Virus record (IMG/VR): IMGVR_UViG_3300042892_004166
Span: 15,097-79,096 of that record
Length of the DNA: 64,000 bases
From: a virus
Taxonomy: Duplodnaviria; Heunggongvirae; Uroviricota; Caudoviricetes
Direction: 5' to 3' (one strand)
Translations under genes and position numbers: made by a program
The notes under the pieces: generated by a model
The model's database searches: none
The model's input: the letters and a program-made list of their open reading frames with translations, nothing else
Told to the model about the DNA's origin: nothing
Shown here: one piece after another, positions 3,049 to 19,752 of the stretch
How positions within the stretch are numbered: position 1 is the first letter of the stretch
Layout: the number at the start of each line of letters is the position of its first letter

Positions 3049-3105
3049 ATTGAAAAAGTTTTACCGCGTCAGGTTTTTTGTTTATATTTACACTATAATT
3101 AAAAT
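3049..3105 (+). promoter_or_regulatory. Intergenic cassette copy (degenerate hairpin half + TTGTTTATATTTACACTATAATTAAAA core)
   Basis: Matches the recurrent core TTG(A/T)TTATATTTACA. ATG at 3115. Confidence 0.5.
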
Positions 3106-3114
3106 ATATAGAAT

Positions 3115-3705
3115 ATGAAGAAAATTAAACTATATGAACAATTTATAGAAGAGAGAAGCGGAGAGCTTTTTAATCCTAAGAAAAACAAACCAGTCATATT
3201 AAAACCGACTAAAGATACAGAATTAGAAAAGGAATTCTTTAATCTTATTAGTACAGCGTACTCTGAGATTGGAGGACATATCAAGGTACAATCACCTAGT
3301 GATGTATTTAAAGACCCTGATTGGAACTATTGGGAGGGAATAGATATTCACGGCAGTAATGATTTTGATGTTATCATGTTTGGTGAAAAAACCCGATTTG
3401 GACTTAAATTCTCAGGAGTTGGCCATGATGGAACCAAAGATGCTAAGAGAGATTATATGGATAGACGAGGAAAAGAATTAAAACAACTTGGATATTATAT
3501 AGAAGTTTCTGGTAAAATTGCCGAAATCTTAATTAATAAGTACCAAGTACCTATTGTAACCGACCAAGAAACAGTAGAAAAGGTCTTGGGTAAAAAGGTC
3601 GATTGGATTGGAAACCTAGACGGTGGAACTGGCGGAGGTTGGTATAGTCGAACTATAGGTGGAGGAGCCCATGAAAAAGTAATGTTAGGTAAACCAAAGG
3701 TATAG
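3115..3705 (+). CDS. Capsid-targeting-sequence (CTS)-like family protein 1, function unknown
   Basis: N-terminus MKKIKLYEQFIEE is paralogous to the N-termini at 14949, 15890 and 16395. It resembles the T4 internal-protein CTS MKTYQEFIAE and the (L/I)xE prohead-protease site. Confidence 0.5.
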   Translation: MKKIKLYEQFIEERSGELFNPKKNKPVILKPTKDTELEKEFFNLISTAYSEIGGHIKVQSPSDVFKDPDWNYWEGIDIHGSNDFDVIMFGEKTRFGLKFSGVGHDGTKDAKRDYMDRRGKELKQLGYYIEVSGKIAEILINKYQVPIVTDQETVEKVLGKKVDWIGNLDGGTGGGWYSRTIGGGAHEKVMLGKPKV

Positions 3706-3706
3706 T

Positions 3707-4216
3707 ATGAAAGCACTATTTTTACATGGTCTTGAAAGTAAAGCTAGGAGTCAAAAGTCAGAGTTCTTAGCAAAGTTTGATGCCGAATGTCCTGTAATGG
3801 ACTACAAAAATCCTGGGATGTTTAATGAAATCTTAGCAAAGATACAAAATAATAGACCAGACGTTTTAATTGGAAGCTCAATGGGAGGATGGTTTGCATA
3901 TTGTCTTTCAACAATCACTGGAATACCAACTATTCTTTTTAATCCAGCAGTTCATAGTCGTTCAATGGAACCAGCAGTACAAATTGGAAGTATGAAAGCA
4001 AATCATACTGTTATTCTTGGTAAGAGGGATAATTTAATTAACCCTGAAGGGACAATTGAATGGGTTAAAAAGAATCCTGGAAATTTTAATATTCACTTTG
4101 AAAGTAATGGACATCAAACACCAATAAATGTATTTAAGAAATATGTACTAAATTCTGGCTATCTTAATGAGATGCAGAGAATTAAAATGTTTGAGGAATT
4201 CAAAAACATAGATTAA
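3707..4216 (+). CDS. Alpha/beta-hydrolase fold esterase (YqiA/YcfP-like)
   Basis: MKALFLHGLES N-terminus, GSSMGG nucleophile elbow (GxSxG). Confidence 0.55.
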   Translation: MKALFLHGLESKARSQKSEFLAKFDAECPVMDYKNPGMFNEILAKIQNNRPDVLIGSSMGGWFAYCLSTITGIPTILFNPAVHSRSMEPAVQIGSMKANHTVILGKRDNLINPEGTIEWVKKNPGNFNIHFESNGHQTPINVFKKYVLNSGYLNEMQRIKMFEEFKNID

Positions 4217-4219
4217 AAA

Positions 4220-4291
4220 CTTTAACATAATTTTAACACTCCAGATTTTACCGTCTGGAGTTTTTTGATTATATTTACATATCTAATTAAA
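4220..4291 (+). promoter_or_regulatory. Intergenic cassette: TTTAACA direct repeat + hairpin CTCCAGAttttaccgTCTGGAG + T-run + TTGATTATATTTACAT core
   Basis: Conserved element, 21 copies in window. ATG at 4301. Confidence 0.6.
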
Positions 4292-4300
4292 TTAAACACC

Positions 4301-4438
4301 ATGGAAAAGAAAAAACTTACAAAAATAAACTTCACATTAGAGGAATGGTTTGATGCCCTAAAAGTACCGGCACCGTATCGTAATAAAAAGAAGTATTATA
4401 AGAAAATAAAGCATAAAGATAAATCCGAGGATTTATAA
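4301..4438 (+). CDS. Small basic hypothetical protein (45 aa)
   Basis: ATG 10 nt after cassette core; hand-translated. Confidence 0.3.
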   Translation: MEKKKLTKINFTLEEWFDALKVPAPYRNKKKYYKKIKHKDKSEDL

Positions 4439-4715
4439 AAACTTGTACCATTTAAAAATTAATAATAAACGCCATGAAACAAAATGTAAAAAGCAATCTC
4501 CAGTTTGCATTATGCTGTATTATTGTCTTAATACTTACAGCTCTAGTTGCTCACTTTTCACCTGTAATGTAATATGAAAAATTATATTTTATTCACAAGA
4601 TGTAAAAATAGTATCTTGATAGCCATACTATGCATTAAACTAAGTTGGAATCCCAAACCCCACGGGGCAGCCAGAGCATTGGACAAGAAATATAAGGCTA
4701 GCACTTTTGCAATAT

Positions 4716-4797
4716 GTTAATAACTTTAACAAAAAATTAACACAAAATAGTTTCCGGATTCAAAAAAGTTGATTATATTTACATATCTAATTAAAAC
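4716..4797 (+). promoter_or_regulatory. Intergenic cassette copy (GTTAATAACTTTAACA...TTGATTATATTTACATATCTAATTAAAAC)
   Basis: Conserved element; ATG at 4806. Confidence 0.55.
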
Positions 4798-4805
4798 AAA
4801 GAAAT

Positions 4806-4961
4806 ATGACGACATTTAAGTTCAATACAGTATCAGAAGCAATGGGTCAATTAAGCCACTTAGGTTGCACCGATTACGAATTCACTAATACAAAGACCCA
4901 AATCACAGTGATAGGTATTAATGGCAAAAAGAAGGTTGCAAAAGCAATAATTAAAAAATAA
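4806..4961 (+). CDS. Small hypothetical protein (51 aa)
   Basis: ATG right after cassette; hand-translated. Confidence 0.3.
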   Translation: MTTFKFNTVSEAMGQLSHLGCTDYEFTNTKTQITVIGINGKKKVAKAIIKK

Positions 4962-4965
4962 AAGC

Positions 4966-5280
4966 ATGGGATATTGGACAACCGCATTTGGAAAACGTAA
5001 AAGATTTAATCGAATAGGACATCAACATTTGTCTAACATCTTATGGTTCAAAGAGGTCTTTAATAATGCAACAATCTATAATGATAGGGCTTATGGAGAA
5101 TTACTTTTAGAACTTCGTATAAGATACGATGGCAAACGAAAACCATGGAAACCCTTACCAATTCCAAATGAAATCGATTGGTTAATTCAAATGGGTCTAA
5201 TTATTAACGAGGATATAGTCTTCAAAGGTACAAAAATAGGTTCAATCAAACATATTAATTTAACACTTAAACAAATATAA
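4966..5280 (+). CDS. Hypothetical protein
   Basis: ORF track. Confidence 0.4.
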   Translation: MGYWTTAFGKRKRFNRIGHQHLSNILWFKEVFNNATIYNDRAYGELLLELRIRYDGKRKPWKPLPIPNEIDWLIQMGLIINEDIVFKGTKIGSIKHINLTLKQI

Positions 5281-5323
5281 AAACAGCATGCGTAAATGCA
5301 AGCAATAATTAAAAAATAAGACT

Positions 5324-5500
5324 ATGCTAGACGAATTACAAAAAGTTTGCACAAAACAAAATGCATTAATGTTATCAATGAGTAAAGAATCATGTGATGA
5401 TATTCATTCAGTATTAAGAAGTAAACAATTAGCCGAAAGCATAATTGAACTTGAAATTAAAAAACAATTATTAATAGATTTAATAGCTAAACTAGTTTAA
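5324..5500 (+). CDS. Small hypothetical protein (58 aa)
   Basis: Hand-translated ORF filling the gap. Confidence 0.25.
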   Translation: MLDELQKVCTKQNALMLSMSKESCDDIHSVLRSKQLAESIIELEIKKQLLIDLIAKLV

Positions 5501-5502
5501 TC

Positions 5503-5919
5503 ATGGAAAAACTATCAAACTTAAAATGGTACCTTGCACTTCCAATATGGTATGCAATAATGACAACGGTCGTATTTATAATATGGTTTGGACTCTCTCA
5601 AGCAATGGGAGGACCTGAAGATGTATTTACAAATCCAGTGACATCTCTTAAATTTTCAAGCCTAATGTCAATTCCATTTACTGCTATTGCCCTACTTATG
5701 GTTAGCATGTCAAAGTCCAATACATTATTCTGGGACAGGGCCGAAGAGGTTAGTGAAAGAATCGAAGCTGCTGAAACTTCAAAGGAACTGCATGCAATAA
5801 TCAATGATGAATTTATAGAAGGTGGAACTCTTAGAAGATTATCAGGTGGAGGACCCCACTATGATAAAATGAAACAAATGCTAGCCATTATAAAAACTAA
5901 AATTAAATACGTAAAATAA
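5503..5919 (+). CDS. Membrane protein (2 TM helices) hypothetical
   Basis: ORF track; hydrophobic segments. Confidence 0.4.
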   Translation: MEKLSNLKWYLALPIWYAIMTTVVFIIWFGLSQAMGGPEDVFTNPVTSLKFSSLMSIPFTAIALLMVSMSKSNTLFWDRAEEVSERIEAAETSKELHAIINDEFIEGGTLRRLSGGGPHYDKMKQMLAIIKTKIKYVK

Positions 5920-6125
5920 TGGACGGAATTATTAAATGGGAAGTAGACCATGATTATACTGTTGATAGTTATTTATTAGTAGGAGATTACAATGGACACC
6001 GTTTTGTAAAACCTGTCTTAAAATATTTCTGGGGAATTCCATTAATGTATGCAAAATGGTGCATAACCAGAAATTACACTATTTTATATCCTGAACAATT
6101 TAAAAAAACAAGTAATGAGCAATAA
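5919..6125 (+). CDS. Hypothetical protein
   Basis: ORF track; ATGA overlap with upstream gene. Confidence 0.35.
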   Translation: MDGIIKWEVDHDYTVDSYLLVGDYNGHRFVKPVLKYFWGIPLMYAKWCITRNYTILYPEQFKKTSNEQ

Positions 6126-6777
6126 AGAAAAAAACATCGATGATGCATTAGAAGGATTAAAATTAATGAATGCTTTTATTTCAAATTCAGGTGGAATGCT
6201 TGAGAGTATCTTTGGAGGTTTACATAAACCTGAACCGATAGAAAAATATCCATACCAAAAATTAGGAGATGGATATGAACTTCGACCGATTCCTCTTACA
6301 AAAAAACAATCTGAAAACTCTAGAATTGTAGGGATGAAATATTCTCACCTATATCATAATGACCTTAAAGTATCGGACTTAATCTTTCGTAAAGGCGGAC
6401 TTGGCGGAACTTTTAAAGATGGTTATTGCTCTTTAATTAATTACGTTAAAACAAAACAACCAAAAAAGAACGATAATGGTTTTTCATTTGGAACCCATGT
6501 AATTATTAATAGACTTGGAGAAATTTGTTTAAATAGGGAAAGTTTAGATTATCCATACCATATAGGAGGACATCTTGCTTCGATTGGTAATTACATATAT
6601 GATTTACGAACTGGAAATGCAATTGCACCTAAAAGTTCACCAACAATCCAAGGAGTCAACTGTATAATTATCAATCATACATATAGTTGGTATGACAAAG
6701 AGATAGCATTACCATTAGGAATCTACCGAATAGATTTTCAAACTGCCGAAATAACTAAAATTGACGAAGTAAAATAA
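6115..6777 (+). CDS. Hypothetical protein
   Basis: ORF track. Confidence 0.4.
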   Translation: MSNKEKNIDDALEGLKLMNAFISNSGGMLESIFGGLHKPEPIEKYPYQKLGDGYELRPIPLTKKQSENSRIVGMKYSHLYHNDLKVSDLIFRKGGLGGTFKDGYCSLINYVKTKQPKKNDNGFSFGTHVIINRLGEICLNRESLDYPYHIGGHLASIGNYIYDLRTGNAIAPKSSPTIQGVNCIIINHTYSWYDKEIALPLGIYRIDFQTAEITKIDEVK

Positions 6778-6783
6778 AAAGAT

Positions 6784-6975
6784 ATGAAAATAGTTAAACG
6801 AAGCATTTTTTCGAATCCAATAGGGTCTATGACTATATGGTTAATACCAACAATGTCCTATTTTTTTGGTAAAGTTGGAGGAATTGAATATAATAGAGAA
6901 TGGATATGGTGGGTTGGAATACCTACATTAATTTTAGGATGGTTGGTATTAAACTTTAAAATAAAGAAAATATGA
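6784..6975 (+). CDS. Small membrane protein
   Basis: ORF track; hydrophobic. Confidence 0.35.
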   Translation: MKIVKRSIFSNPIGSMTIWLIPTMSYFFGKVGGIEYNREWIWWVGIPTLILGWLVLNFKIKKI

Positions 6976-7121
6976 AAGTAATCTACATGGAACACACATT
7001 AAACCTGATGGCTACAACCGATTTAGAAGTAGTTAGGAGACTTGTAACCTATGGAACGGTAAAACGTACTGAGGTTGGAACTTATTTAGTAATTGAAACA
7101 AAACCCGAAGAACAAATATAA
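6972..7121 (+). CDS. Small hypothetical protein (49 aa)
   Basis: Hand-translated; ATGA overlap with upstream stop. Confidence 0.25.
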   Translation: MKVIYMEHTLNLMATTDLEVVRRLVTYGTVKRTEVGTYLVIETKPEEQI

Positions 7122-7126
7122 TTATT

Positions 7127-7345
7127 ATGGAAAAATTAACTACAGGAATCGGATTAATCTTTGCTGGGATAGCATTATTAGTCGTGGCTGCAATCTTATT
7201 TGCATGGCCAGTACAATTATTATGGAATGGATGTTTAATTAGTGCAGTTGATGGAGTTCACCCAATCACATTTTGGCAAGCTCTTGGATTGAATTTCTTA
7301 TTTTCAATCCTATTCAAAGGAACTTCAACCTCAAGCAAAAAATAA
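7127..7345 (+). CDS. Small membrane protein
   Basis: ORF track. Confidence 0.35.
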   Translation: MEKLTTGIGLIFAGIALLVVAAILFAWPVQLLWNGCLISAVDGVHPITFWQALGLNFLFSILFKGTSTSSKK

Positions 7346-7346
7346 A

Positions 7347-7544
7347 ATGATACACAATATCATTTTGTACTTATTATTTGGTGTGTCCTATTCATTTGGG
7401 ATGCACCAACTAAGAGAACTGTTAAATGAGAGTAATCCGATTGGAATCCATTTAAAACCATATACAAGGTTTGAACATGTCTTATTGGCCGTATTTTGGC
7501 CATTCTTTCTAATAGTATTTATTGTTTCATTTTTTAAATCTTAA
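7347..7544 (+). CDS. Small membrane protein
   Basis: ORF track. Confidence 0.35.
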   Translation: MIHNIILYLLFGVSYSFGMHQLRELLNESNPIGIHLKPYTRFEHVLLAVFWPFFLIVFIVSFFKS

Positions 7545-7545
7545 T

Positions 7546-8391
7546 ATGCCAGAATTAGCAGAACTTAAACTTACAGCAGCGTATATTAATACAGTATCTG
7601 AAGGTCTTTTTTTTAATAAGATTGAAAAGAATCCCGTGCATAAAGGGGTTGAAATTGATGCAGAATCTACGGTTTTTAAAATTAGTGCAAAGAGCCGAGG
7701 AAAAGAATTGATGGTGTATTTAATCTCTCCAATCGGATATGTTTCTCTCAGAATGAACATGGGTATGGCTGGACATTTTCAAATAACCCCAACAGGTAAA
7801 GAATCAAAACATGCCCATCTTAAGTTCTATTCAGAATGTGGAAAGACCCTGAGTTTTGTAGATGTTCGACGATTTGGAAAGTGGAAAGTTGAAAGCGACT
7901 GGTCAGCGGACAGAGGACCAGACCCCACACAGGACTTTGAAGGATTCCAAAAAAACATAATGGACAATATTGACAAGAAGGAATTTGATAAACCAGTTCA
8001 CTTGGTAATGATGAACCAGAAGTACTTTAATGGAATTGGAAACTACTTACGAGCTGAGATTTTATATAGAGTTGCAGATGCAAATCCATTCCTTCCGGCT
8101 AGAGAGATTCTGCAACAATACCCTGACATTTTAACCTTATGCCGAGAAATACCGCAACTTGCCTACGTAATGGGAGGTGGAAGTATTAAAGACTGGAAAA
8201 ACCCCTTTGGATTAGACGCCGCTCCAGAACATTTCTTTCAATGTTACTCAAATCCAACTATGGCAAATATAGTTGATGCCAATGGTCGAAGATTTTGGTA
8301 CGACCGGAAATGGGACCTTGTTGAATTTGACTCTGATACTTGGTGTCACTATAGCGGAATGCCAAGCCCTGAAGCATACACTAAAAAATAA
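7546..8391 (+). CDS. Fpg/Nei-family DNA glycosylase (H2TH, zincless C-terminus)
   Basis: N-terminal MPELAEL matches the Fpg catalytic Pro2/Glu3. NMGMAGHF, DVRRFGKW and NGIGNYLRAEILYRVADANP match the Fpg HLGMSG / DPRRFG / H2TH motifs. True start is 7546, not the track's 7522. Confidence 0.7.
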   Translation: MPELAELKLTAAYINTVSEGLFFNKIEKNPVHKGVEIDAESTVFKISAKSRGKELMVYLISPIGYVSLRMNMGMAGHFQITPTGKESKHAHLKFYSECGKTLSFVDVRRFGKWKVESDWSADRGPDPTQDFEGFQKNIMDNIDKKEFDKPVHLVMMNQKYFNGIGNYLRAEILYRVADANPFLPAREILQQYPDILTLCREIPQLAYVMGGGSIKDWKNPFGLDAAPEHFFQCYSNPTMANIVDANGRRFWYDRKWDLVEFDSDTWCHYSGMPSPEAYTKK

Positions 8392-8399
8392 ATATTTAT

Positions 8400-8879
8400 A
8401 TGACTGGAAAAATTGCAATTGTCGGAGCTGCTGCTACCGGTAAGGATTACTTAAGAAAACGAATGATGGACAAGGGATTTGTGTATGGAGTTTCATGTAC
8501 AACCCGTTTACCTAGAGAGGGCGAAGTTCATGGAAAGGACTATTATTATCTAACAACTGAGGAATTTGATTCTAAAATTGAAAGAGGAGAATTTGCAGAA
8601 TGGCAAGAATTTAATGGTTGGAAATATGGCCTAACCAAAGATGAATTTGAGCGATGCGATGTGATGATTCTAAATGCTGAGGCTGTTACTCTGCTTGAAC
8701 AGGACTACAGAAACAGGGTCTTTGTAATATACTTAGACATCCCAGAAGAGATTCGTAGAGAGCGCCTAGGTGATCGAAATGATAAAAATGATTCAACTGA
8801 CAGAAGAATTTCAGCAGATAATGAACAATTTAGAAACTTTTTTGATTTTGATTGTAAAATAACTAATGAAAACTTTTAA
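8400..8879 (+). CDS. Guanylate kinase-like nucleoside monophosphate kinase
   Basis: SCTTRLPREGEVHGKDYYYLTTEEF aligns with the GK motif SATTRxPRxGExDGxDYxFV. P-loop-like GAAATGK. Confidence 0.6.
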   Translation: MTGKIAIVGAAATGKDYLRKRMMDKGFVYGVSCTTRLPREGEVHGKDYYYLTTEEFDSKIERGEFAEWQEFNGWKYGLTKDEFERCDVMILNAEAVTLLEQDYRNRVFVIYLDIPEEIRRERLGDRNDKNDSTDRRISADNEQFRNFFDFDCKITNENF

Positions 8880-8906
8880 TAATATATAATACCTAAAACA
8901 ATTCAA

Positions 8907-9425
8907 ATGGCGAAAGCAAAACAAAAATCTACAGCAGAATTAAAAGACCTACGTTCTCAATTAGAAATTGAAGTTAACGAGGCACAAAAAGACTTAGCAG
9001 AAAAGAAATATTCTGTAAATCTTGAAAGCATCCAAAACATTAACGCTATCTTAAAGCAAATTGACAAAAATTACGAGTGGAGTATTAAAAATGCTGCTTT
9101 TGTAATTAACCTTTATGATGCATTAGCAGACCAAAAGAAACAATTCCAAATCGCAGACAAGGGAGAATCTACTGTTCAACTTAGTGGAGTTCAACTTAAT
9201 CAATTGTACACTATTATCACAAACATAACAGGTACTGGTATTGATGGAGCTAAAATCTTTACTAGATTACTAACAAATGTAGGTGCTCAAATCTCAAATG
9301 CCTTAAATGAAATGGCTGAGGCTAACAAGGTAATCCAAGAGAAACACGTTCAATTAGCAGAACTTGATGTTGCTATTGATGAAGCAGAAAAACCTGAGGT
9401 TGCAGTAGAAGAAATCGCACAATAA
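8907..9425 (+). CDS. Hypothetical coiled-coil protein
   Basis: ORF track. Confidence 0.4.
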   Translation: MAKAKQKSTAELKDLRSQLEIEVNEAQKDLAEKKYSVNLESIQNINAILKQIDKNYEWSIKNAAFVINLYDALADQKKQFQIADKGESTVQLSGVQLNQLYTIITNITGTGIDGAKIFTRLLTNVGAQISNALNEMAEANKVIQEKHVQLAELDVAIDEAEKPEVAVEEIAQ

Positions 9426-9427
9426 TT

Positions 9428-9964
9428 ATGAAATTAGCAAGTAAATCTAAAAAACGTTTAGATTTGCTAGAAGCTATCCAAGACGGCATTACTACTCGTG
9501 ATGTTTTTGAAACAATTGGCTACAAGAATCAAAGTGAGGATAAAATAATTCAATTTATTTATCCTCACCTTCTTACTCAGTTGACAGAATATGTCATGGA
9601 AAAGAAGGGCTTTAGCAGATCTCTTGCCAAAGAAAAAGCAAGAACAATGATTAAATGGGAGGGTAATGTAAATACCACTGTGAAACAAATTCAATTCATG
9701 GGGACTCAAAACCGTCCGGATATGACAATCCAAAGCGAAGGGGTTACTATTGCCATCGAATTTAAGAAGGGAGACAGAGGTTCATCCTTACGAGAAGGAT
9801 TTGGACAATCAATAGTATATTCAACTGCTTATGATTTTGTTATTTATATGTTTATTGATGTTAGTGAGGATGGTAGAATCGTCAAAGGCTCATCTGCAGT
9901 AAATGAACAAAAATTCTTAGAGAATTTGTGGGATAATTTTAACGTAAAATTTGCAATAGTTTAA
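9428..9964 (+). CDS. Hypothetical protein, possible PD-(D/E)xK fold (PDMTI...IEFKKG)
   Basis: ORF track; weak motif. Confidence 0.3.
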   Translation: MKLASKSKKRLDLLEAIQDGITTRDVFETIGYKNQSEDKIIQFIYPHLLTQLTEYVMEKKGFSRSLAKEKARTMIKWEGNVNTTVKQIQFMGTQNRPDMTIQSEGVTIAIEFKKGDRGSSLREGFGQSIVYSTAYDFVIYMFIDVSEDGRIVKGSSAVNEQKFLENLWDNFNVKFAIV

Positions 9965-10482
9965 TGAAAACATTCGTAACATCAAATCAGCAATTTGGCC
10001 GACCAGGTGCCATAAAATCATATAAAAGACCCTTCGAGGATGTCCAAGAAATGAATCAAACTCTTTTTGAATCATGGAATTCAACAGTCTCTCCGGAAGA
10101 TATAGTGTACGTTTTAGGTAACTTTGCATGGGACCCAGAAACTGCGGAATATTTCCTTAGAAACCTGAACGGGACTATTATTAATATAGACGGAGAATTT
10201 GACCAGGCCCTTGAAGAGCTAGAAGAGACCGCCTCTGCCCTAGATATTGACTTTTTTAATGGACTATTAGAAGTCTTTTCAGAAGAGAACGCAGTTCTTT
10301 CATATTGGCCTCTCCTTGAATGGCCACGCAAATCAAAAGGTGCCTATTCAATCATAGGATTTCCGAATAAAAAGTATGCAAGTAACCATAAGACCAAAAC
10401 AATTAATTGTTGTTGTGACTTTTGGGAATTTAAACCCGTAGAATTATCCAAGATAATTGAGCTCTTCAATGAAGTAGAATAA
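9964..10482 (+). CDS. Hypothetical protein
   Basis: ORF track. Confidence 0.4.
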   Translation: MKTFVTSNQQFGRPGAIKSYKRPFEDVQEMNQTLFESWNSTVSPEDIVYVLGNFAWDPETAEYFLRNLNGTIINIDGEFDQALEELEETASALDIDFFNGLLEVFSEENAVLSYWPLLEWPRKSKGAYSIIGFPNKKYASNHKTKTINCCCDFWEFKPVELSKIIELFNEVE

Positions 10483-10483
10483 T

Positions 10484-10566
10484 GTTAATAACTTTAACAA
10501 AATTTTAACACTCTAGTGTTTCCCTATTCAAAAAATTGTATTATATTTACATTATAATTAAAAAAC
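10484..10566 (+). promoter_or_regulatory. Intergenic cassette copy
   Basis: GTTAATAACTTTAACAAAATTTTAACAC ... TTGTATTATATTTACATTATAATTAAAAAAC. ATG at 10577. Confidence 0.55.
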
Positions 10567-10576
10567 AAAAACAAAT

Positions 10577-11191
10577 ATGGCATCTAAATCTTACAGAGAA
10601 TTAACAGAGAATTTTTTATCAACCCGTTCTGAAGCAGACTTTACTGCACTTTTTTACAAAGTAAAACCAGGACTTACGACTTATATTAATAAAATAGTAA
10701 AAGATCGCGAAATGGCTGAAGATATTGCCGTAAACACTTTAACAAAATTGTGGACTAAAATTGATCAATATGACCCACAATACCAGATCACTACATGGTT
10801 GTACCGAATTGCATTCAATGATGCATTAGGACATATCAATAATAGAAACAAACAATCCTCCCTGGATGCCCTATCTGATTACGGTGTTGAAGTAAGTGAG
10901 AATGGTGAATTTGTAAGTGGCTCAAAAGGATTAAATGGTGCTATTGAAGATTACGTAATGAAAACCGAACAGGATTTCCTTGAGGAAGATGACGAACTTA
11001 TGGCAAAGTATGGTCGTGCTCTTACTGAAATTGAAAACCTGAAAGGAATGTACCGTGAAATTGTAATTGATCGTTTGATTAATGAGATGAAGTACGAAGA
11101 AATCGCAGAAAAACATGACTTACCGCTACAAACTATTAAAAACCGTATTCGTAGAGGTAAAGCAATCATCGAAGAAAATATGATGTCGTAA
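10577..11191 (+). CDS. Sigma-70 family (ECF-type) RNA polymerase sigma factor
   Basis: Region 2-like DPQYQITTWLYRIAFNDALGHINNR. Region 4 HTH YEEIAEKHDLPLQTIKNRIRRGKAII. Confidence 0.65.
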   Translation: MASKSYRELTENFLSTRSEADFTALFYKVKPGLTTYINKIVKDREMAEDIAVNTLTKLWTKIDQYDPQYQITTWLYRIAFNDALGHINNRNKQSSLDALSDYGVEVSENGEFVSGSKGLNGAIEDYVMKTEQDFLEEDDELMAKYGRALTEIENLKGMYREIVIDRLINEMKYEEIAEKHDLPLQTIKNRIRRGKAIIEENMMS

Positions 11192-11403
11192 TGGTTGTTG
11201 TTGTCTATAGAAAATCTAGCAGTTCAAAAACAAAATACATGATTGTGTTTGAGAATGAACAAAACCCGGATAAAATTATAAATCTGAATGCCAGGAAACC
11301 AATGATTCCGAATAATTATATTATCGATGAGATTGGAGTTGGTGGCAGTTTTATAGAGAGCTATAAAAAACAACATAAAATTAAAAAACATGAAGTTTGT
11401 TAA
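11191..11403 (+). CDS. Hypothetical protein (ATGA-coupled to the sigma factor)
   Basis: ORF track. Confidence 0.35.
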   Translation: MVVVVYRKSSSSKTKYMIVFENEQNPDKIINLNARKPMIPNNYIIDEIGVGGSFIESYKKQHKIKKHEVC

Positions 11404-11406
11404 ATT

Positions 11407-11488
11407 GTTAATAACTTTTTGAAAATAATTAACCTGACATTTTACCGTGTCAGGTTTTTTGTTTATATTTACATATTAAATTTAATTA
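11407..11488 (+). promoter_or_regulatory. Intergenic cassette copy with hairpin ACCTGACAttttaccgTGTCAGGT
   Basis: Compensatory stem variant of the hairpin. Core TTGTTTATATTTACATATTAAATT. ATG at 11490. Confidence 0.6.
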
Positions 11489-11489
11489 A

Positions 11490-12053
11490 ATGAAAGCAAT
11501 AAAACTAATTGACAACATCTATTTAATTGAAGATATATTGGACATTGATAATTATCCAAATCTTTTTGATAGTGTTAAAGTAGAAGCCAGTTTTGATAAA
11601 CCCGGTCGAGGTGGTAGAAAAATGTGTAGAATGACCGATAAGGGTATTACATACACACTATTTGGCAAAAAGTATGGTCGAAAAAACTACTCTGAAACTG
11701 TTTTAAGAATTAAAAAAGAATTAGAGGAGAAGTTACCTGTTAACGCTGATTATTTTAATACATGCACTCTTAATTATTATAATAGTGGAAATTGTTCTTT
11801 TAGGGATCATACCGACAAAATGCCAGACCTAGAACAACCAATGATTGTTGCGACACTTACACTCGGCAATTCTAATCGTAAAATGAGATTGATTAATAGA
11901 TTTACCAACATTGGATACGAGGTTGTACTAAAACATAATTCTATGTTATTTATGGGTCCTGGTATGCAAGACATATATTTACATGGAATTCCAAAAGAAA
12001 AAAATGATGTAGAACCTCGATTAAGTTTAAGCTTTCGAAGACAAAAACTTTAA
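11490..12053 (+). CDS. 2OG-Fe(II) oxygenase, AlkB-like
   Basis: NYYNSGNCSFRDHTD (HxD) ... LINRF ... HGIP distal His. Motif spacing typical of AlkB. Confidence 0.5.
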   Translation: MKAIKLIDNIYLIEDILDIDNYPNLFDSVKVEASFDKPGRGGRKMCRMTDKGITYTLFGKKYGRKNYSETVLRIKKELEEKLPVNADYFNTCTLNYYNSGNCSFRDHTDKMPDLEQPMIVATLTLGNSNRKMRLINRFTNIGYEVVLKHNSMLFMGPGMQDIYLHGIPKEKNDVEPRLSLSFRRQKL

Positions 12054-12126
12054 CAAAAAATTAACATTTTAGATTTTCAGGATTCTAAACTATTGATTAT
12101 ATTTACATATCTAATTTTAACAAAGA
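12048..12126 (+). promoter_or_regulatory. Intergenic cassette copy
   Basis: CTTTAACAAAAAATTAACA ... TTGATTATATTTACATATCTAATTTTAAC. ATG at 12133. Confidence 0.55.
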
Positions 12127-12132
12127 AACACT

Positions 12133-12441
12133 ATGAAAAATTTTAAGGTACTTTCAATCGAAGACGCAGACGAATCAGGAACATCACTTCAAGGTTATAT
12201 TGTTGCAACTTATAGTCAATTACTAGAGGCACTAGGAGAACCTACATACAATGAGCCAAGTGGAGATAATAAAGTTCAAGTTGAATGGGTTGTAGATTTT
12301 GAAGGTGATATTTTTACAATATATGACTGGAAGACCGGTTCAAGAGAATACACTGAAAATGAATTGATGAAATTTAATGTTGGAGGTAAAGTATCAGCAT
12401 CAGATTTTATTCAAGAAGTAGAATCTCAAATCAACAAATAA
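12133..12441 (+). CDS. Hypothetical acidic protein
   Basis: ORF track. Confidence 0.4.
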   Translation: MKNFKVLSIEDADESGTSLQGYIVATYSQLLEALGEPTYNEPSGDNKVQVEWVVDFEGDIFTIYDWKTGSREYTENELMKFNVGGKVSASDFIQEVESQINK

Positions 12442-12442
12442 G

Positions 12443-12592
12443 ATGGGAGACAAAGATACAAATGCAGTAATTTTGATAATTGCTTTAATGGCTTTCCTAT
12501 TTGGATTCTTGGTCGCAGAAGCAATTTACAATGAAAGGCCAATGACTGAAGAGGAATATTATGAACTACAAAAATCACAATGGTATGAGTAA
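12443..12592 (+). CDS. Small membrane protein (49 aa)
   Basis: Hand-translated; one TM helix. Confidence 0.25.
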   Translation: MGDKDTNAVILIIALMAFLFGFLVAEAIYNERPMTEEEYYELQKSQWYE

Positions 12593-12968
12593 AGAACTAT
12601 TTTTATTAAGAGGACTACCAGGAGCTGGAAAATCTACGCTGGCAGAATCATTAAATTGTTATCGTTTAGAAGCAGACCAGTATTTTATGAGTAATGGTAC
12701 TTATGAATTTAATGCAACTAAATTAAAAGATGCGCATGAATGGTGTAGAATCCGATGTGAAGAGTTTATGCAAATGGAACTTAAAATAGCAGTAGCAAAC
12801 ACATTTACCCAAGAATGGGAAATGCAAGCCTACTATGATTTGGCTGAAAAATATGACTATAGAGTATACTCCTTAATCGTAGAAAACCGACATGGAGGGG
12901 TAAATGAGCACAATGTTCCGCAAGAAACATTAGAAAAAATGAAACAAAGATTTGAAGTAAAACTATAA
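12561..12968 (+). CDS. P-loop kinase resembling the kinase domain of T4 polynucleotide kinase (no phosphatase domain)
   Basis: LLRGLPGAGKSTLAES Walker A, compare T4 Pnk GCPGSGKST. Start may be the internal ATG at 12585. Confidence 0.45.
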   Translation: MNYKNHNGMSKELFLLRGLPGAGKSTLAESLNCYRLEADQYFMSNGTYEFNATKLKDAHEWCRIRCEEFMQMELKIAVANTFTQEWEMQAYYDLAEKYDYRVYSLIVENRHGGVNEHNVPQETLEKMKQRFEVKL

Positions 12969-12971
12969 AGG

Positions 12972-13355
12972 ATGGAAAACATTTTTAAAGTTGCCAAATA
13001 CGAAAAGACGGATGAAGGGTTTAAACACCTTGGATATGATGAGTATCAAATCACATATCTTAAAGGTAATAAACCCCATCAAATCCGGGTAGTTGTTAAT
13101 GGTATTTTAACAAATAGAGTTATTAATTTAATCGATGGTAATTCTGGCTATAAAAATCAAATACTATCCGCAATTAGTGATGTTAAAAATGTTAAAATAG
13201 ATTTAAAAACAAGACCGTCAGAAAAAAAGAAGGTAACATTAGCATACATTGGAACATTTTATAGTAAGTTAATCGTTAAAAACGTTAAGAACTATTTGAT
13301 AGGAATTAACAAAGAAGAGAGAAGAGACACATTAACCAAATATGAATTAATATAA
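12972..13355 (+). CDS. Hypothetical protein
   Basis: ORF track. Confidence 0.4.
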   Translation: MENIFKVAKYEKTDEGFKHLGYDEYQITYLKGNKPHQIRVVVNGILTNRVINLIDGNSGYKNQILSAISDVKNVKIDLKTRPSEKKKVTLAYIGTFYSKLIVKNVKNYLIGINKEERRDTLTKYELI

Positions 13356-14479
13356 TGGAAAATCAAAATTCAGTTTGCTACGTAGCAAAAATAAATGAAG
13401 TTCGAGCAATCGAAGGAGCAGATAACATCGAATTAGTTATCGCAGGTGGATGGAATGCCATCACAAAGAAAGGTGAATTTAGAGAAGGTTCCCTAACAGT
13501 AATTGCAACAACAGATGCAGTAATACCTGAAGCCCTTTCTGAAAAAATGGGAGTTGCAAACTACCTAAGAAAAGGTACAAGAGTCCGAACTGTAAAATTG
13601 CGTGGAGTCTATTCAGAATGTTTAATCATTCCAGTTACATATATTAGAGCAAAATCTATTGTAGAAGGAAAGGATTTAATGGAAGAGTTAGGTATCACTA
13701 AATATGAGCCACCAGTTAAACAAATCCAATTAGCATCTGGTAGAAAAATCAAATGGAGAGATAACCAAAACTTCCATATCTACTACAAGTTTCCAAACTT
13801 GAAAAATGTGGCTGGATTATTTACTGAAGCGGATGAGGTTCAAATCACCAGAAAATTGCACGGAACAAATGCACGTTATGGTATTGTAAAGAAATCTAAA
13901 TTGACCCTTTGGGACAGAGTAAGAAAATTCTTAAGAATTGCTGACGAATGGGTTAACTACGAGTACATTTATGGTTCTCATAATTGTGAGAAAGGATCTG
14001 ATTCTCAAGGATTTTATTCAACTGACGTTTGGAGAACAACTGCCGAAGAATATGGTATCAAAGAAAAACTTTGGAGAGCTGTAAAAAGAAAATCAGTCGA
14101 AGAAATTGGTTCTGGTTTTGTTTTGTATGGTGAAATCTATGGTGCAGGAATTCAAAAGAACTATGAATATGGTTTAAAAGATACTAGATTTGCTGCATTT
14201 GATTTAACAATTGATGGAAAGTATATGGACCCTGAATTAACAGAATACATTGTTGAGGAAGTTCTAGAACTCTCTCATGTTACAGTTCTTTATGAAGGAT
14301 TATGGAATCAAGAGGTACAAGATGGTTTGGTTTTCGGTAACTTCATCGACGGTACTAAAGTCCCACATGAAGGAATTGTAATCAAGCACATTACTGGTGA
14401 AAGACAAAAAGTTGCGAAAGTAATTAATCCAGACTACTTGATTTATGGTGAAAAGAATAACGTAGGAGATTCTCACTGA
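13355..14479 (+). CDS. RNA ligase, Rnl2-like covalent nucleotidyltransferase with N-terminal extension
   Basis: Motif I KLHGTNARYG resembles T4 Rnl2 KIHGTN. Downstream acidic and lysine motifs. Confidence 0.5.
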   Translation: MENQNSVCYVAKINEVRAIEGADNIELVIAGGWNAITKKGEFREGSLTVIATTDAVIPEALSEKMGVANYLRKGTRVRTVKLRGVYSECLIIPVTYIRAKSIVEGKDLMEELGITKYEPPVKQIQLASGRKIKWRDNQNFHIYYKFPNLKNVAGLFTEADEVQITRKLHGTNARYGIVKKSKLTLWDRVRKFLRIADEWVNYEYIYGSHNCEKGSDSQGFYSTDVWRTTAEEYGIKEKLWRAVKRKSVEEIGSGFVLYGEIYGAGIQKNYEYGLKDTRFAAFDLTIDGKYMDPELTEYIVEEVLELSHVTVLYEGLWNQEVQDGLVFGNFIDGTKVPHEGIVIKHITGERQKVAKVINPDYLIYGEKNNVGDSH

Positions 14480-14480
14480 T

Positions 14481-14936
14481 ATGGCAGTTGATTACAAAAG
14501 AGTACTTCTAGGAATGCTAGGAGAAAAGATAGTTGCAAAACACTTTAGGGATTCCGGACATCAGGTCGAGGAATCCCTAAACGTTTTTGATTCGGATAAA
14601 GATATGATAATTGATGGATATAACATTGAGGTAAAAACAAATGCACCCTTAATCTATTACGATTCGTTTTCATTTCCAAAGAGCCAACATGATAAGATTA
14701 TGAATTCACATCGGGTTTATTGGGTTTCAGTCCCATTACAAACTCAAGAGGACCAATTTGCGGGTTGCATTTTTGAAATGGACCCTAAGGTCGCAAAACT
14801 GCATACAATTAAATTTAATTCTGGAACAACTGCAATTGGAATCCGTCGACAACAAGACGGAATGAAGGTGATTCATAAGATTGAAGACCCTACTATATTA
14901 AAACAACTTAAAGAACTTTCGTCTTCGTATTTATAA
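14481..14936 (+). CDS. Hypothetical protein, possible Mrr-cat/restriction-endonuclease-like fold
   Basis: GEKIVAKHFRDSGHQV ... DMIIDG ... NIEVKT pattern. Confidence 0.3.
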   Translation: MAVDYKRVLLGMLGEKIVAKHFRDSGHQVEESLNVFDSDKDMIIDGYNIEVKTNAPLIYYDSFSFPKSQHDKIMNSHRVYWVSVPLQTQEDQFAGCIFEMDPKVAKLHTIKFNSGTTAIGIRRQQDGMKVIHKIEDPTILKQLKELSSSYL

Positions 14937-14948
14937 GATATATAATAC

Positions 14949-15893
14949 ATGAAAAGAATTAAATTATTTGAACAGTTTATTGCAGAGAAGGAAGACAATT
15001 CCGATTTGCATAAAATCTATTTGGCTATTAATCCTGATAGTGGGCATAGATGGTGGTCTTATAAAGACTTCGCCGGAGATAATTTCTTTGTACAGGTAAC
15101 ACTTGATAATTACAAAGACATTAACATCAATTCAGAATACCCAATCCTTACATACAATTCTAAAGTAACTCAAAAGCTCCTAGATGAAGGGTTAATTAAA
15201 AAAGAAAATGTCTATAACCTACCAGAACATATCAAACAATCTGGTTCCAAGGCAGAATTTCATAAGTTGGTTGATGGTGATGAAAACATCCCAAAAACTG
15301 CGCATAATGAAAAAGATGCCCTAAAAATTGGATTCCCATTAATTGGAAAACCAGCAGAAGGACACTCAGGACTTGGTATTCAAATCTTTAAGGACCAGAA
15401 ATCATGGGACGATGCAGACCATTCGAAGTTGGATGTTTATTCAGAATATATTGACAAAGCAGCCGAACACAGATTGATTACATTTAAGGGTAAACCATTT
15501 TTCTGGATGGAAAGAAACCCATTGAATGCTAAAGCAAAATCTGGAGAAGGAAAAGGAGACGAACAAATGATGTTTAAATACATTAAAAAGGACGTTACCA
15601 AAATACCACAGAAATTTAATGACCTAGTTGAAAAATTCGGTAAAATATTCTCAGACTTGCCATATATCTGTTTTGATATTATGGAAGATAAATCTGGAAA
15701 ACTATATATAATTGAAAGTAACAGTCAGCCGGGAGTACCATTTGATTCTACAGTTCAGGCATACAGACAATTATTTAATGATTTTTACGGTCGTGATGTA
15801 AATCCAGCGGCTAACACCGAGCTCGAGAAATTGAGTGACTATATGATTAAGAAAACCCTGGACTTTGACCCAAAAAGATTTGAAGTAGAATGA
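14949..15893 (+). CDS. CTS-like family protein 2 with ATP-grasp-like ligase fold
   Basis: N-terminus MKRIKLFEQFIAEKE. GFPLIGKPAEGHSGLGIQIF and YIIESNSQPGVPF resemble the ATP-grasp K-loop and the EVNxxPG motif. Confidence 0.45.
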   Translation: MKRIKLFEQFIAEKEDNSDLHKIYLAINPDSGHRWWSYKDFAGDNFFVQVTLDNYKDININSEYPILTYNSKVTQKLLDEGLIKKENVYNLPEHIKQSGSKAEFHKLVDGDENIPKTAHNEKDALKIGFPLIGKPAEGHSGLGIQIFKDQKSWDDADHSKLDVYSEYIDKAAEHRLITFKGKPFFWMERNPLNAKAKSGEGKGDEQMMFKYIKKDVTKIPQKFNDLVEKFGKIFSDLPYICFDIMEDKSGKLYIIESNSQPGVPFDSTVQAYRQLFNDFYGRDVNPAANTELEKLSDYMIKKTLDFDPKRFEVE

Positions 15894-16408
15894 AAAAAGT
15901 AAAATTATTTGAAGAGTTCCTAGACGAAAAAAAGAAGGGTCTTTGGGACAATATATGGGCTAAAAGAAAGCGCGGCGAAAAACCTGCAAAGCCAGGTGAT
16001 AAAGATTATCCCGATGAAGAGGACTGGGAGGACGCGCAAGAATCTGTTGTTTTAGAATCAGAAGATACTTACAATGACTATCCTGCTGCCGCAAAGGAGA
16101 ATGCAAAGAAGGCCCTGGATTGGAGAGACCAATATGGACGTGATGAAGTAACTGCAGGTACTCCAGTCGGATGGCAACGCGCAAATCAGTTGGCAAAAGG
16201 AGAAAAACTTTCGCAAGATGTAGTTTCCCGAATGGCACAATTTAATCGACATAGAAAGAACTCGAAAATAGCACCAGAACATAAATCAGAACCGTGGAAA
16301 GACAATGGATATGTTGCATGGTTGATTTGGGGTGGAGATGAAGGAGTTGATTGGGCTATGAAAAAAATGGATGAAATTAATAAAAAAGAAAATAATGAAA
16401 AGAATTAA
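15890..16408 (+). CDS. CTS-like family protein 3, acidic and basic segments
   Basis: N-terminus MKKVKLFEEFLDEKKKG. Confidence 0.45.
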   Translation: MKKVKLFEEFLDEKKKGLWDNIWAKRKRGEKPAKPGDKDYPDEEDWEDAQESVVLESEDTYNDYPAAAKENAKKALDWRDQYGRDEVTAGTPVGWQRANQLAKGEKLSQDVVSRMAQFNRHRKNSKIAPEHKSEPWKDNGYVAWLIWGGDEGVDWAMKKMDEINKKENNEKN

Positions 16409-16937
16409 ACTATTCGAAGAGTTCTTAAATGAAAAAATAAAAACAACACATGATTTTAATTGTGCAATGTTATATTTTGACTTTCCAGCAATGGCAACTC
16501 TACATCAATCAATAAGACCTGAAGATATTTTCACAGTAGAAGCTGATGAAAGTTACGGTCTTGAAAATGAACCACACTGTACTTTATTATACGGACTTCA
16601 CCCTGAAGTAACTGTTGATCAGGTTGCAGACAAATTAAAAGGGATTAAACTCGGAGAGTGCAAAGCCTACAATCTTTCTCTTTTTGAAAATGATAAATTT
16701 GATGTCCTAAAATTTGACATGGAAGGTGATAATCTTCATAATGCAAATAAATCACTTAGTGAACTTCCGCACACTACGGACTACCCAGATTATATGCCCC
16801 ACATGACTGTTGCCTACTTAAAACCAGGTAAAGGTTCTGAATATTTAAAGATACTAAATTCAGGAGAACATTCACTAAAACCGCTGCATATTACTTATAG
16901 TATGACAGATGGCTCTAAACAAAAAATAGATTTATAA
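16395..16937 (+). CDS. CTS-like family protein 4 with 2H phosphoesterase (LigT-like) fold
   Basis: N-terminus MKRIKLFEEFLNEK (the track's 16371 start is an upstream extension). Two H-x-T-x motifs, HCTLLYGL and PHMTVAYL. Confidence 0.55.
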   Translation: MKRIKLFEEFLNEKIKTTHDFNCAMLYFDFPAMATLHQSIRPEDIFTVEADESYGLENEPHCTLLYGLHPEVTVDQVADKLKGIKLGECKAYNLSLFENDKFDVLKFDMEGDNLHNANKSLSELPHTTDYPDYMPHMTVAYLKPGKGSEYLKILNSGEHSLKPLHITYSMTDGSKQKIDL

Positions 16938-18330: not shown

Positions 18331-18416
18331 ATTTTATATGTCTCTGATGGTTATGGCGACCGGTAGCATTGCAAACGCTACAGATACAGTTCGATTCTGT
18401 ACGGAGACTCAAATTA

Positions 18417-18493
18417 AAACTTTAACATAATTTTAACACTTAAAGTTTTACCGATTGAAAGAATTGTTATATATTTACATAACAAATTAGAAC
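18417..18493 (+). promoter_or_regulatory. Intergenic cassette copy (hairpin-less variant) driving tRNA cluster 1
   Basis: CTTTAACATAATTTTAACAC ... TTGTTATATATTTACATAACAAATTAG. First tRNA starts 18526. Confidence 0.5.
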
Positions 18494-18525
18494 AAAGGTT
18501 CTTTGACATACTGATAACCAAATTT

Positions 18526-18597
18526 GCAGATATCGTATAATGGCCATTACTTTAGACTTCCAATCTAAAGATGGGAGTTCGATTCTCCCTATCTGCT
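18526..18597 (+). tRNA. tRNA-Gly: tRNA-Gly(TCC)
   Basis: Acceptor GCAGATA/TATCTGC. T-arm GGGAGTTCGATTCTCCC. Anticodon loop cTTCCaa. Confidence 0.55.
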
Positions 18598-18661
18598 CAA
18601 ACTATACTGCTCGTCATTGAGTAAATATTAAGGGTATTAAATTGATATACCACAGTGTAGC

Positions 18662-18737
18662 TATTATGTAGTGTAGATGGTTAGCACGGGTAGAGGTAAT
18701 AGTCTTCCAATCGCAGGTTCGAATCCTGTCATGATAA
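18662..18737 (+). tRNA. tRNA, anticodon undetermined
   Basis: Acceptor TATTATG/CATGATA (one GU). T-arm GCAGGTTCGAATCCTGT. Confidence 0.4.
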
Positions 18738-19197
18738 CTAAATTGATTGCCGGTCACAAGTATCGGTTCTTAACGGGAAATCGCTCTCGAGGTACTGTAA
18801 ATTGTATCGTGAACAGACTGGAACGCTTTCGTAACCGCATCCAAGTGGGCAGTAGGGGATGACGAAAAGAAATAAATTGTATAATGGCGAAAATATGGAA
18901 TCGGCCGATAAACATAGAAGTAGCATGAAACGAATATCCAAAGGAGAATATTCTCCGGAGAATAACGAAGCTCAGCGGTATCAATCAAACACCTCCTCGC
19001 GGTGATACTGGAAATTTAATTAGGCAGTTCATTCAATAAGCTTTAAGAATGTTCCGTTACTTTGAAAATACAAGTGATGCGCTCCGAAACCTAGTTAAAA
19101 ACCAAGTTTGAAATAATGCTTGTTCGTATAAAGGTAGTACAATGCTCTTTGACAGCATCGGAGGAGGATCGTTACCTCCACAGGCAACAAATAATTT

Positions 19198-19273
19198 CTG
19201 GATGTAGAGGAGCCCGGTTTATCTCGCTGGCCTTGGACGCTAGAGCACGCAGGTTCGAATCCTGCTATCCAGA
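19198..19273 (+). tRNA. tRNA-Pro: tRNA-Pro(TGG)
   Basis: Acceptor CTGGATG/TATCCAG. Anticodon arm CTGGC-cTTGGac-GCTAG. T-arm GCAGGTTCGAATCCTGC. Confidence 0.5.
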
Positions 19274-19332
19274 CACAGATGAGATTGTTACTAATTCATA
19301 GAACTACATATTGTGAGCATAGAATTAGATTT

Positions 19333-19405: not shown

Positions 19406-19411
19406 CAAGGA

Positions 19412-19479: not shown

Positions 19480-19486
19480 TTGATTT

Positions 19487-19558: not shown

Positions 19559-19564
19559 CTAAAT

Positions 19565-19747: not shown

Positions 19748-19752
19748 CAAAA

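Follow-up and report, generated by a model that had tools for sequence, protein, structure and literature searches.

We analysed a 64,000-nucleotide stretch of a Caudoviricetes genome (IMG/VR record IMGVR_UViG_3300042892_004166, positions 15,097-79,096; hereafter the window, whose coordinates are used throughout), in which four open reading frames (ORFs) on the + strand, at 3115, 14949, 15890 and 16395, begin with the same 13-residue leader, MK[KR][IV]KL[FY]E[EQ]F[IL]xE. Beyond the leader the four proteins, P1 to P4, are unrelated and fall into different Pfam or PHROG families or into none. A first-pass annotation of the window had recognized the shared N-terminal motif and the unrelated remainders, and both observations are borne out by our reading of the ORFs and by the Pfam and PHROG comparisons. 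It had also described the four proteins as paralogous, which they are not, because the tag is portable and is the only part that they have in common. The leaders and the genes that carry them are as follows.

3115..3153, + strand: leader 1, MKKIKLYEQFIEE, N-terminus of P1
3115..3705, + strand: P1, 196 residues, core protein of the clade, its fold tentatively GNAT-like; carries leader 1
3707..4216, + strand: UPF0227-type alpha/beta hydrolase (esterase), Pfam PF05728 at 36 bits; syntenic partner of P1
4172..4216, + strand: truncated fifth copy of the leader, MQRIKMFEEFKNID, followed by a stop; the in-frame C-terminus (last 14 codons) of the hydrolase ORF 3707-4216
14949..14987, + strand: leader 2, MKRIKLFEQFIAE, N-terminus of P2
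14949..15893, + strand: P2, 314 residues, ATP-grasp-like ligase; carries leader 2
15890..15928, + strand: leader 3, MKKVKLFEEFLDE, N-terminus of P3; its start overlaps the P2 stop by 4 nt
15890..16408, + strand: P3, 172 residues, consisting of the leader, a GLWDNIWAKRKRG motif and a C-terminal YNDYPxAAxxNAKKA domain; PHROGs of unknown function
16395..16433, + strand: leader 4, MKRIKLFEEFLNE, N-terminus of P4; its first 14 nt lie within the end of the P3 ORF
16395..16937, + strand: P4, 180 residues, Acb1-like 2H phosphoesterase; carries leader 4

A six-frame scan of the 64 kb for the core K[LM][FY]E[EQ]F, or for the looser form [KR][LMIV][FYW]E[EQD]F, returned five copies, all on the + strand: the four gene starts and the copy at 4172-4216. 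A degenerate DNA pattern of the leader matched two window sites, against 0.00 expected from 100 shuffles. When all ORF starts were scanned for the arrangement aromatic-xx-aromatic-h-x-E, the same four proteins were found together with one hydrophobic protein at 43310, which we judged to be a chance match. The longest-ORF call for P4 begins at 16371, but in its orthologues a stop lies in frame 2-14 codons ahead of the leader Met, which makes 16395 the real start. The truncated copy at 4172-4216 is probably the remnant or scar of a lost or replaced leader gene, and an intergenic promoter repeat (4213-4291) lies directly 3' of it. A near-identity search of the region against 50,697 phage records gave no match.

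Selection on the leader peptide and its distribution

Conservation starts at the ATG, and an alignment of the five window sites revealed nothing common upstream of it. Across 121 non-redundant leader genes from related viral contigs, codons vary at fixed residues: Leu6 is encoded by TTA, CTA or CTT, Phe7 and Phe10 by TTT or TTC, and Glu8, Glu9 and Glu13 by GAA or GAG. Synonymous codon proportions at L6, F7, E8, E9, F10 and E13 are much as elsewhere in the genome, and at Lys positions 2 and 5 the codon AAA is used by 91-95% of leaders, compared with a background of 79%. Because synonymous-site identity is low while the amino acids are nearly invariant, selection acts on the peptide and not on the DNA.

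The search pattern partly fixed positions 7 and 10 and left positions 11-13 unconstrained. Among 119 non-redundant leaders, 87 have I, L, V or M at position 11 and 84 have Glu at position 13, with a small or polar residue (N, A, S, T, G) between the two; the complete [ILVM]-x-E is found at positions 11-13 in 81 of them. Information content falls to background level immediately past position 13, where the next residue is mostly A, K, S or G. In an AlphaFold model of P1, residues 1-15 have a pLDDT below 50, so they lie outside the folded domain of this protein.

The strict DNA pattern occurs in 51 stretches of IMG/VR viral contigs and has no match in 596 Gb of GTDB bacterial and archaeal genomes. 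A relaxed pattern occurs in at least 117 viral stretches, on contigs of up to 482 kb, and in 25 stretches of cellular genomes, several of which lie on contigs of metagenome-assembled genomes labelled Bacteroidetes, Flavobacteriaceae or Cytophagales; several of these cellular stretches look like mis-binned phage DNA. The host is probably a member of the Bacteroidota. In IMG/VR, 121 ORFs begin with the leader, usually with an in-frame stop 0-24 codons upstream, and as many as nine leader genes lie in one 6.7-kb locus. After removal of the first 16 residues, 137 distinct leader proteins, collected by regular expression from all fetched loci, fell into 38 unrelated cargo families. Conversely, a given cargo may occur with or without the tag: the C-terminal domain of P3 is found directly behind the leader (MKHIKLFEDFINE-AEETYNDYP), leaderless (MSKEQTYNDYP), with truncated leaders or behind other modules, and the P1 homologue gp057 of the Tenacibaculum phage pT24 has no leader. 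The leader is therefore a portable N-terminal module that is specific to phages.

The T4 capsid targeting sequence and a T4-type head

The first-pass annotation had likened the motif to the capsid targeting sequence (CTS) of phage T4, and our alignment of the N-termini upholds this comparison. The T4 CTSs taken from NC_000866 read MKTYQEFIAE in ipII and ipIII and MKTFKEFTS in ipI. According to a review that cites Mullaney & Black 1996 (PMC9026906), targeting needs CTS residues 4 and 7 and processing needs residues 8 and 10. Given a three-residue insertion after MK, leader residues F7, F10, [ILVM]11 and E13 align with T4 Y4, F7, I8 and E10, so that all four residues mapped by mutagenesis are matched, and they are matched by the best conserved positions of the leader. 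The end of the leader, [ILVM]-x-E, is the cleavage consensus (L/I)-x-E of the T4 protease gp21. Some P1 orthologues begin with MKLYKEWLSES or MLKYEEWLAEA, forms intermediate between the leader and the T4 CTS.

The likeness extends beyond single residues. The leader and the CTS of the T4 internal proteins IPI-III (Mullaney & Black 1996; PMC9026906, PMC3012670) are both N-terminal tags of 10-13 residues on unrelated proteins, and both show the pattern aromatic-x-x-aromatic-[IL]-x-E (YQEFIAE in T4, FEQFIAE here) ending in the gp21 consensus. In both systems the tagged genes lie dispersed through accessory or hyperplastic regions, away from the head module, which is of the gp20/gp21/gp23 type. There are also differences: the leader is three residues longer (MK-xIK-L...), and its cargos are mostly enzyme-sized and belong to at least 38 families, whereas T-even phages have a handful of small proteins. 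Where characterized, the Ip proteins of T-even phages inhibit GmrSD-type restriction enzymes (PMC12373910).

The window contains no structural genes, and the genes that it shares with T4 are an RNA ligase, a polynucleotide-kinase-like gene and a Pyr_excise gene (pyrimidine-dimer excision, of the kind of T4 denV). Searching the motif loci with T4 head-protein queries revealed gp21 and gp23 homologues adjoining a leader gene in two of them, L022 and L052. The capsid protein of L022, used as a query in turn, retrieved 80 head modules, eight of which are on the same IMG/VR contigs as leader loci. Two leader loci, L021 and L029, match the window at 88% identity over 8-10 kb, and their contigs also carry head modules (L102 and L109). 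Another head module, L107, was recovered from the sample that also yielded contigs 99.5-100% identical to the window, and it shares 89-90% nucleotide identity with L102 and L109; for these reasons, L107 is very probably the head module of the window phage or of a near twin. The head genes are thus documented in relatives at 88-90% identity and on a same-sample contig, the head module of the exact window genome not having been recovered.

L107 encodes a gp55-like late sigma factor, proteins resembling gp4 and gp2, a portal protein (PF07230, gp20), a Peptidase_S77 protease (PF03420, 44.7 bits against a gathering threshold of 27) fused to a scaffold-like region, and the capsid protein Gp23 (PF07068). 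The fusion gene lies at L107:4433-6355, and its S77 domain covers roughly residues 1-200. The protease retains the His and Ser aligned to H85 and S140 of T4 gp21, the catalytic residues of that enzyme. The first-pass annotation had assigned the leader proteins to a non-T4 phage; this was wrong, since the clade has a T4-type head module with gp20 portal, S77 protease and gp23, and the gp21-like prohead protease that it proposed to look for elsewhere in the genome is represented by the S77 protease of these close relatives. By capsid protein, the nearest deposited genomes are those of uncultured huge phages (LR756500, 52% identity), followed by Lak phages, PAU, PTm1 and pT24 at 38% identity or less.

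The strongest argument for an address to the prohead interior is that the tag of the accessory enzymes is also the tag of conserved prohead-associated proteins. In 75 head modules, the slot between portal and protease genes, the position of T4 gp67/gp68, encodes a small acidic protein of about 113-122 residues, which begins with a leader-type sequence in about 72 of the 75 (for example MKIIKTFEEFTSSLQEDA, MKHVKLFEEFLSEE, MKHLKTFKNYSNLTEDA and MKRIKLFEEFILEKE). A large, highly charged protein is encoded 3' of the capsid gene, and most of 70 such proteins begin with a related, more T4-like form (MKTFEQWYNS, METFENWYTSILEE, MKSFNDWYASINEE, MDKFEKWLEVINEE). A variant leader, MKHL[KQ]TFKN[YF], occurs once per contig and on the slot protein only. 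Here, too, the clade differs from T4, whose gp67 and gp68 have no CTS; moreover, the protease is fused to the scaffold in these phages, in which packaging is only predicted.

The capsid genes also provide a clue to timing. A box of the form [AG]GATATATA[AG]TA lies about 120 nt before the capsid-gene ATG and is kept in all the diverse relatives, with similar boxes ahead of the protease gene and of the gene that follows the capsid gene. The T4 late promoter consensus is TATAAATA; the capsid-gene box resembles it in sequence, and the phages encode a gp55-like sigma factor. Perfect GATATATA[AG]T boxes occur at only two places in the window, 14937 and 18060, and a weaker one precedes P1.

14937..14948, + strand: late-promoter-like box GATATATAATAC, ending 2 nt before the P2 ATG and kept ahead of P2 orthologues
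3103..3114, + strand: weak late-promoter-like box AATATATAGAAT, ending 1 nt before the P1 ATG

P2 is the first gene of the three-gene leader cluster, and the P1 box sits just downstream of an early-type promoter repeat with its core at 3082. The second perfect box, at 18060, lies just upstream of a tRNA array. Across the related contigs, a box within 25 nt of the ATG was found for 29 of 129 leader ORFs and 64 of 1293 others (odds ratio 5.6, Fisher p = 2.5e-10); these counts include orthologous genes, which are not independent of one another. Nearly all the boxes sit 2-4 nt from the ATG, an arrangement also seen at the head-slot gene, and at least ten cargo families have the box, as read from the listed examples. 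Transcription late in infection, perhaps as leaderless transcripts, is suggested by a box GATATATAAT directly before the ATG.

Cargo proteins and neighbouring features

P1 has 321 homologues, nearly all with the leader. It belongs to no Pfam or PHROG family, and a PDB sequence search returned nothing meaningful. Its AlphaFold model has a pLDDT of 69, and the top Foldseek matches are almost all GNAT acetyltransferases, at weak scores (E of 0.03 or more, TM-scores 0.2-0.5). In every case the esterase gene comes next after that of P1, including in pT24 (gp057/gp056; L055 19887-21073) and in the 634-kb LR745206 (L001 ~20001-20600). Because this gene pair is kept across the window phage, pT24 and LR745206, it suggests that P1 and the esterase function together.

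P2, a candidate ATP-grasp ligase of the RimK-like kind, scores at best 26.1 bits against the Pfam ATP-grasp families, below the cut-off of 31.4, and matches PHROG 2599, annotated as "ribosomal protein S6 glutaminyl transferase", at 1.9e-5. Its PDB matches are all ATP-grasp enzymes and are weak (E above 0.2). The P2 orthologues in the IMG/VR loci comprise 15 distinct sequences, all with the leader. Another homologue is found in one of the uncultured huge phages.

L289:3761-4750, in LR756500.1 (462 kb): ATP-grasp homologue of P2; its start, MKFIKPYEEFKIND, is leader-like and ends in Asp, not Glu

P3 gave no meaningful PDB sequence match. Its C-terminal domain, with 986 homologues, is a very common phage domain that occurs behind the leader, leaderless, or behind a DUF5824, GNAT or Zn ribbon module.

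P4 scores 31.3 bits against the Pfam Acb1 family (PF23474), for which the cut-off is 27, and 24.7 bits, below the cut-off, against 2_5_RNA_ligase2. It contains two H-x-T motifs, HCT (in EPHCTLLYGL) and HMT (in MPHMTVAYL), and its PDB sequence matches are Acb1 proteins only, though weak (E 0.02-0.6). P4 thus resembles T4 Acb1 (gene 57B), which acts against the cyclic-oligonucleotide-based antiphage signaling system (CBASS), both in its score above the Pfam cut-off and in keeping both H-x-T motifs. The T4 acb1 gene adjoins ipI; T4 Acb1 itself has no CTS, unlike P4 with its leader, and to our knowledge it has not been reported to be packaged. The P4 gene lies near an RNA ligase gene (13355-14479) and a polynucleotide-kinase-like gene (12561-12968). 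Because these genes adjoin, P4 could equally well be an RNA-repair cyclic phosphodiesterase as an anti-CBASS Acb1. Of the candidate roles named in the first-pass annotation, anti-defence finds support for 16395 alone, with RNA repair equally possible there.

Several further features of the window and its relatives were recorded. An intergenic unit of about 90 nt is present in about 21 window copies, all on the + strand and 10-20 nt before start codons, and recurs many times in related contigs. It reads AACA(A/T)AAnTTTAACAC, then a short GC hairpin, then TTG(A/T)TTATATTTACAT..TAATTAAAAC; its cores are at 3082, 4269, 4773, 10541, 11463, 12097, 17405, 18469, 23495, 26260, 30575, 32492, 33671, 36761, 39229, 42534, 45147, 48013, 51198, 51946 and 54528. 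The unit is probably a terminator combined with an early or middle promoter. An upstream DNA element as the cause of the leader motif was considered and rejected, since this repeat stops short of the ATG and has no relation to the leader. The 5' untranslated region of the capsid gene contains a conserved hairpin, TCGAT..CAGTT-AAGAAGCAAAA-AACTG..ATCGA (L107:6440-6490, with equivalents in L058-L137). Its loop, AAGAAGCA, never varies, and of the 10 predicted pairs 5 are maintained by changes on both strands of the stem. The element matched no Rfam family and may be a translational operator.

The window carries 29 tRNA genes, 26 of them at 18340-22678 and the others at 53660-53744, 54266-54352 and 57372-57451. 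One 90-nt call in the array, "tRNA-???" at 20016-20105, was given a four-base anticodon (ttga). Two other proteins, of 775 residues (27261-29588) and 138 residues (30050-30466), start alike (MSIFKTTLSVES... and MASLKTTITLDS...) and belong to no PHROG family; their shared start may be a second N-terminal module.

The flanks, followed for up to 10 kb by way of the ligase and endolysin genes, contained no head genes except an S77 paralogue. The ORF at 70-2244, also tried as a route to the head module, was not on record.

L284:12613-13011, about 1.2 kb past the right end of the window: S77-family paralogue of 132 residues, in which GELNHP has become GELGYP and the aligned His and Ser are lost

Its position follows from L284 9277-11386, which corresponds to window 61891-64000 at 99.4% identity. 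This protein is a dead paralogue of the prohead protease lying among accessory genes.

A candidate address for the capsid interior

We consider it rather probable that the leader corresponds to the T4 CTS and serves a clade of uncultured jumbo phages whose heads are of the T4 type. Of the explanations considered, this reading is the best, and independent lines of comparative evidence support it: the modularity of the tag, its sharp boundary at Glu13, the match to the T4 residues, the gp21-family protease in a T4-type head, the tagged head-module proteins and the capsid-gene box. We infer that the leader binds the core and that the tagged proteins are cleaved, packaged and injected, with late timing, as follows. 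Leader genes would be transcribed late from the GATATATA(A/G)T promoter abutting the start codon, and perhaps also earlier from upstream promoters. The amphipathic leader, with its aromatic-x-x-aromatic pattern, would bind the scaffolding core of the prohead, and the fused protein would be co-assembled inside the shell. The S77 (gp21-family) prohead protease would cut after Glu13 of [ILVM]-x-E, freeing the cargo within the capsid, and the cargo would leave with the DNA at the next infection. In the window phage, the cargos delivered in this way would be the tentatively GNAT-like P1, the ATP-grasp-like ligase P2, the two-module protein P3 and the Acb1-like 2H phosphoesterase P4.

A number of observations weigh against a CTS-like role. 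The alignment to the T4 CTS requires a three-residue insertion and rests on about seven residues, which leaves room for convergence or coincidence, and 29 of the 119 non-redundant leaders were counted as lacking the [ILVM]-x-E ending. The leader genes of the window lie among early-type genes, behind the abundant early-type promoter repeat. The putative late promoter was deduced solely from conservation upstream of capsid genes, and where the box lies 2-4 nt from the ATG the transcripts would have to be leaderless. An ATP-grasp ligase or a similar enzyme could well do its work in the producing cell's own cytoplasm. In LR756500, an ATP-grasp protein starts in leader-like fashion, yet there is no small ORF in the portal-protease slot. 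Finally, we found neither a cultured relative that carries the leader nor a virion proteome from the clade; the Tenacibaculum phages pT24 and PTm1 and the Flavobacterium phage MaF61 have T4-like capsid genes (28-34% identity) and no leader in the regions examined, so they cannot supply proteomic evidence.

Some of these observations would also be expected if the leader were an N-terminal helix that docks phage proteins on another partner, such as a chaperone, a protease adaptor (the leader acting as a degron) or a cytoplasmic assembly or replication compartment, and had no role in encapsidation. Such docking would suit cargos that look like ordinary cytoplasmic enzymes, leader genes placed in early-type operons and the roughly one quarter of leaders without Glu13, and packaging is itself only inferred. 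However, it leaves unexplained why the tag is also found on the portal-protease slot protein and the charged post-capsid protein in about 70 head modules, why the tag ends in the gp21 cleavage consensus, why it matches functionally mapped residues of the T4 CTS and why leader genes are enriched for the capsid-gene box. We therefore regard docking on another partner as unlikely, while taking it seriously. An idea reportedly proposed for the hyperplastic loci of T-even phages is that the coding stretch serves mainly as a recombination joint for swapping cargo cassettes, the peptide itself having little function. The clustering of leader genes in variable loci with differing cargos in related phages, the truncated remnant at 4172-4216 and the occurrence of the same cargo with and without the leader all agree with this idea, but low synonymous-site identity combined with near-invariant amino acids indicates selection on the peptide. 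A role mainly as a joint is thus improbable, although recombination at the leader can coexist with a targeting function.

The first-pass annotation had itself raised the possibility of a generic bias at translation starts; such a bias could lie in A-rich codons and low mRNA structure. The AAA-rich Lys codons 2 and 5 (91-95% against 79%) are what such a bias would produce. Nevertheless, the motif is present on only 4 of about 100 window genes, the strict pattern is absent from the 596 Gb of cellular genomes, and the Phe, Glu and Leu residues are fixed while their codons vary near genome proportions. We therefore reject this explanation as highly improbable.

If the leader does act as a CTS, a broader picture follows, which we put forward as tentative and would not yet count on. 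The leader would be a capsid-interior address label in a widespread clade, by which dozens of exchangeable enzyme families, including the Acb1-like phosphodiesterase, ATP-grasp ligases, P-loop kinases and GNAT-like proteins, are pre-loaded and injected; the Acb1-like protein would then be the first anti-CBASS enzyme to be delivered by virions. The principle itself goes back to work on T4 in the 1990s. The literature on capsid targeting that we searched deals with T4, phage P1 and giant phages only, and the strings KLFEEF, KLFEQF, KLFEDF and KTFEEF were not found in it. What it does not report is the breadth seen here: the leader is longer, the jumbo-phage clade is uncultured and widespread, the enzyme cargos number in the dozens, and head-module proteins are tagged as well. 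In the giant phages phiKZ, 201phi2-1 and SPN3US, the propeptides are long and dissimilar, with the cleavage motif S/A/G-x-E, and there is no short common tag recognizable by sequence, unlike in the phages described here. These three are likewise jumbo phages with gp21-related proteases, which cut after Glu, and propeptides direct dozens of their inner-body and ejection proteins into the head for ejection (PMC5694885, PMC7411985, PMC10052503). In the Dar system of phage P1, anti-defence proteins are packaged into the capsid via N-terminal targeting regions and injected with the DNA (PMC9024508, PMC12810830). That system (DarA/Hdf-dependent DarB, Ulx) differs from the one proposed here in belonging to another head lineage, in having no common short leader and in its hierarchical incorporation, which depends on specific partner proteins.

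Injected proteins act ahead of phage gene expression and are thus prime candidates for counter-defence and host takeover, but they are normally found only through virion proteomics of cultured phages. If our reading is true, a simple sequence rule would flag hundreds of candidate injected proteins in uncultured jumbo phages, and injected effector repertoires could be read directly from metagenomes. The leader would also provide a second, naturally diversified targeting tag for engineering capsids as protein-delivery vehicles. For the biology of these phages, the T4 paradigm, with its small basic inhibitors of restriction enzymes, would widen to a broad arsenal of enzymes.

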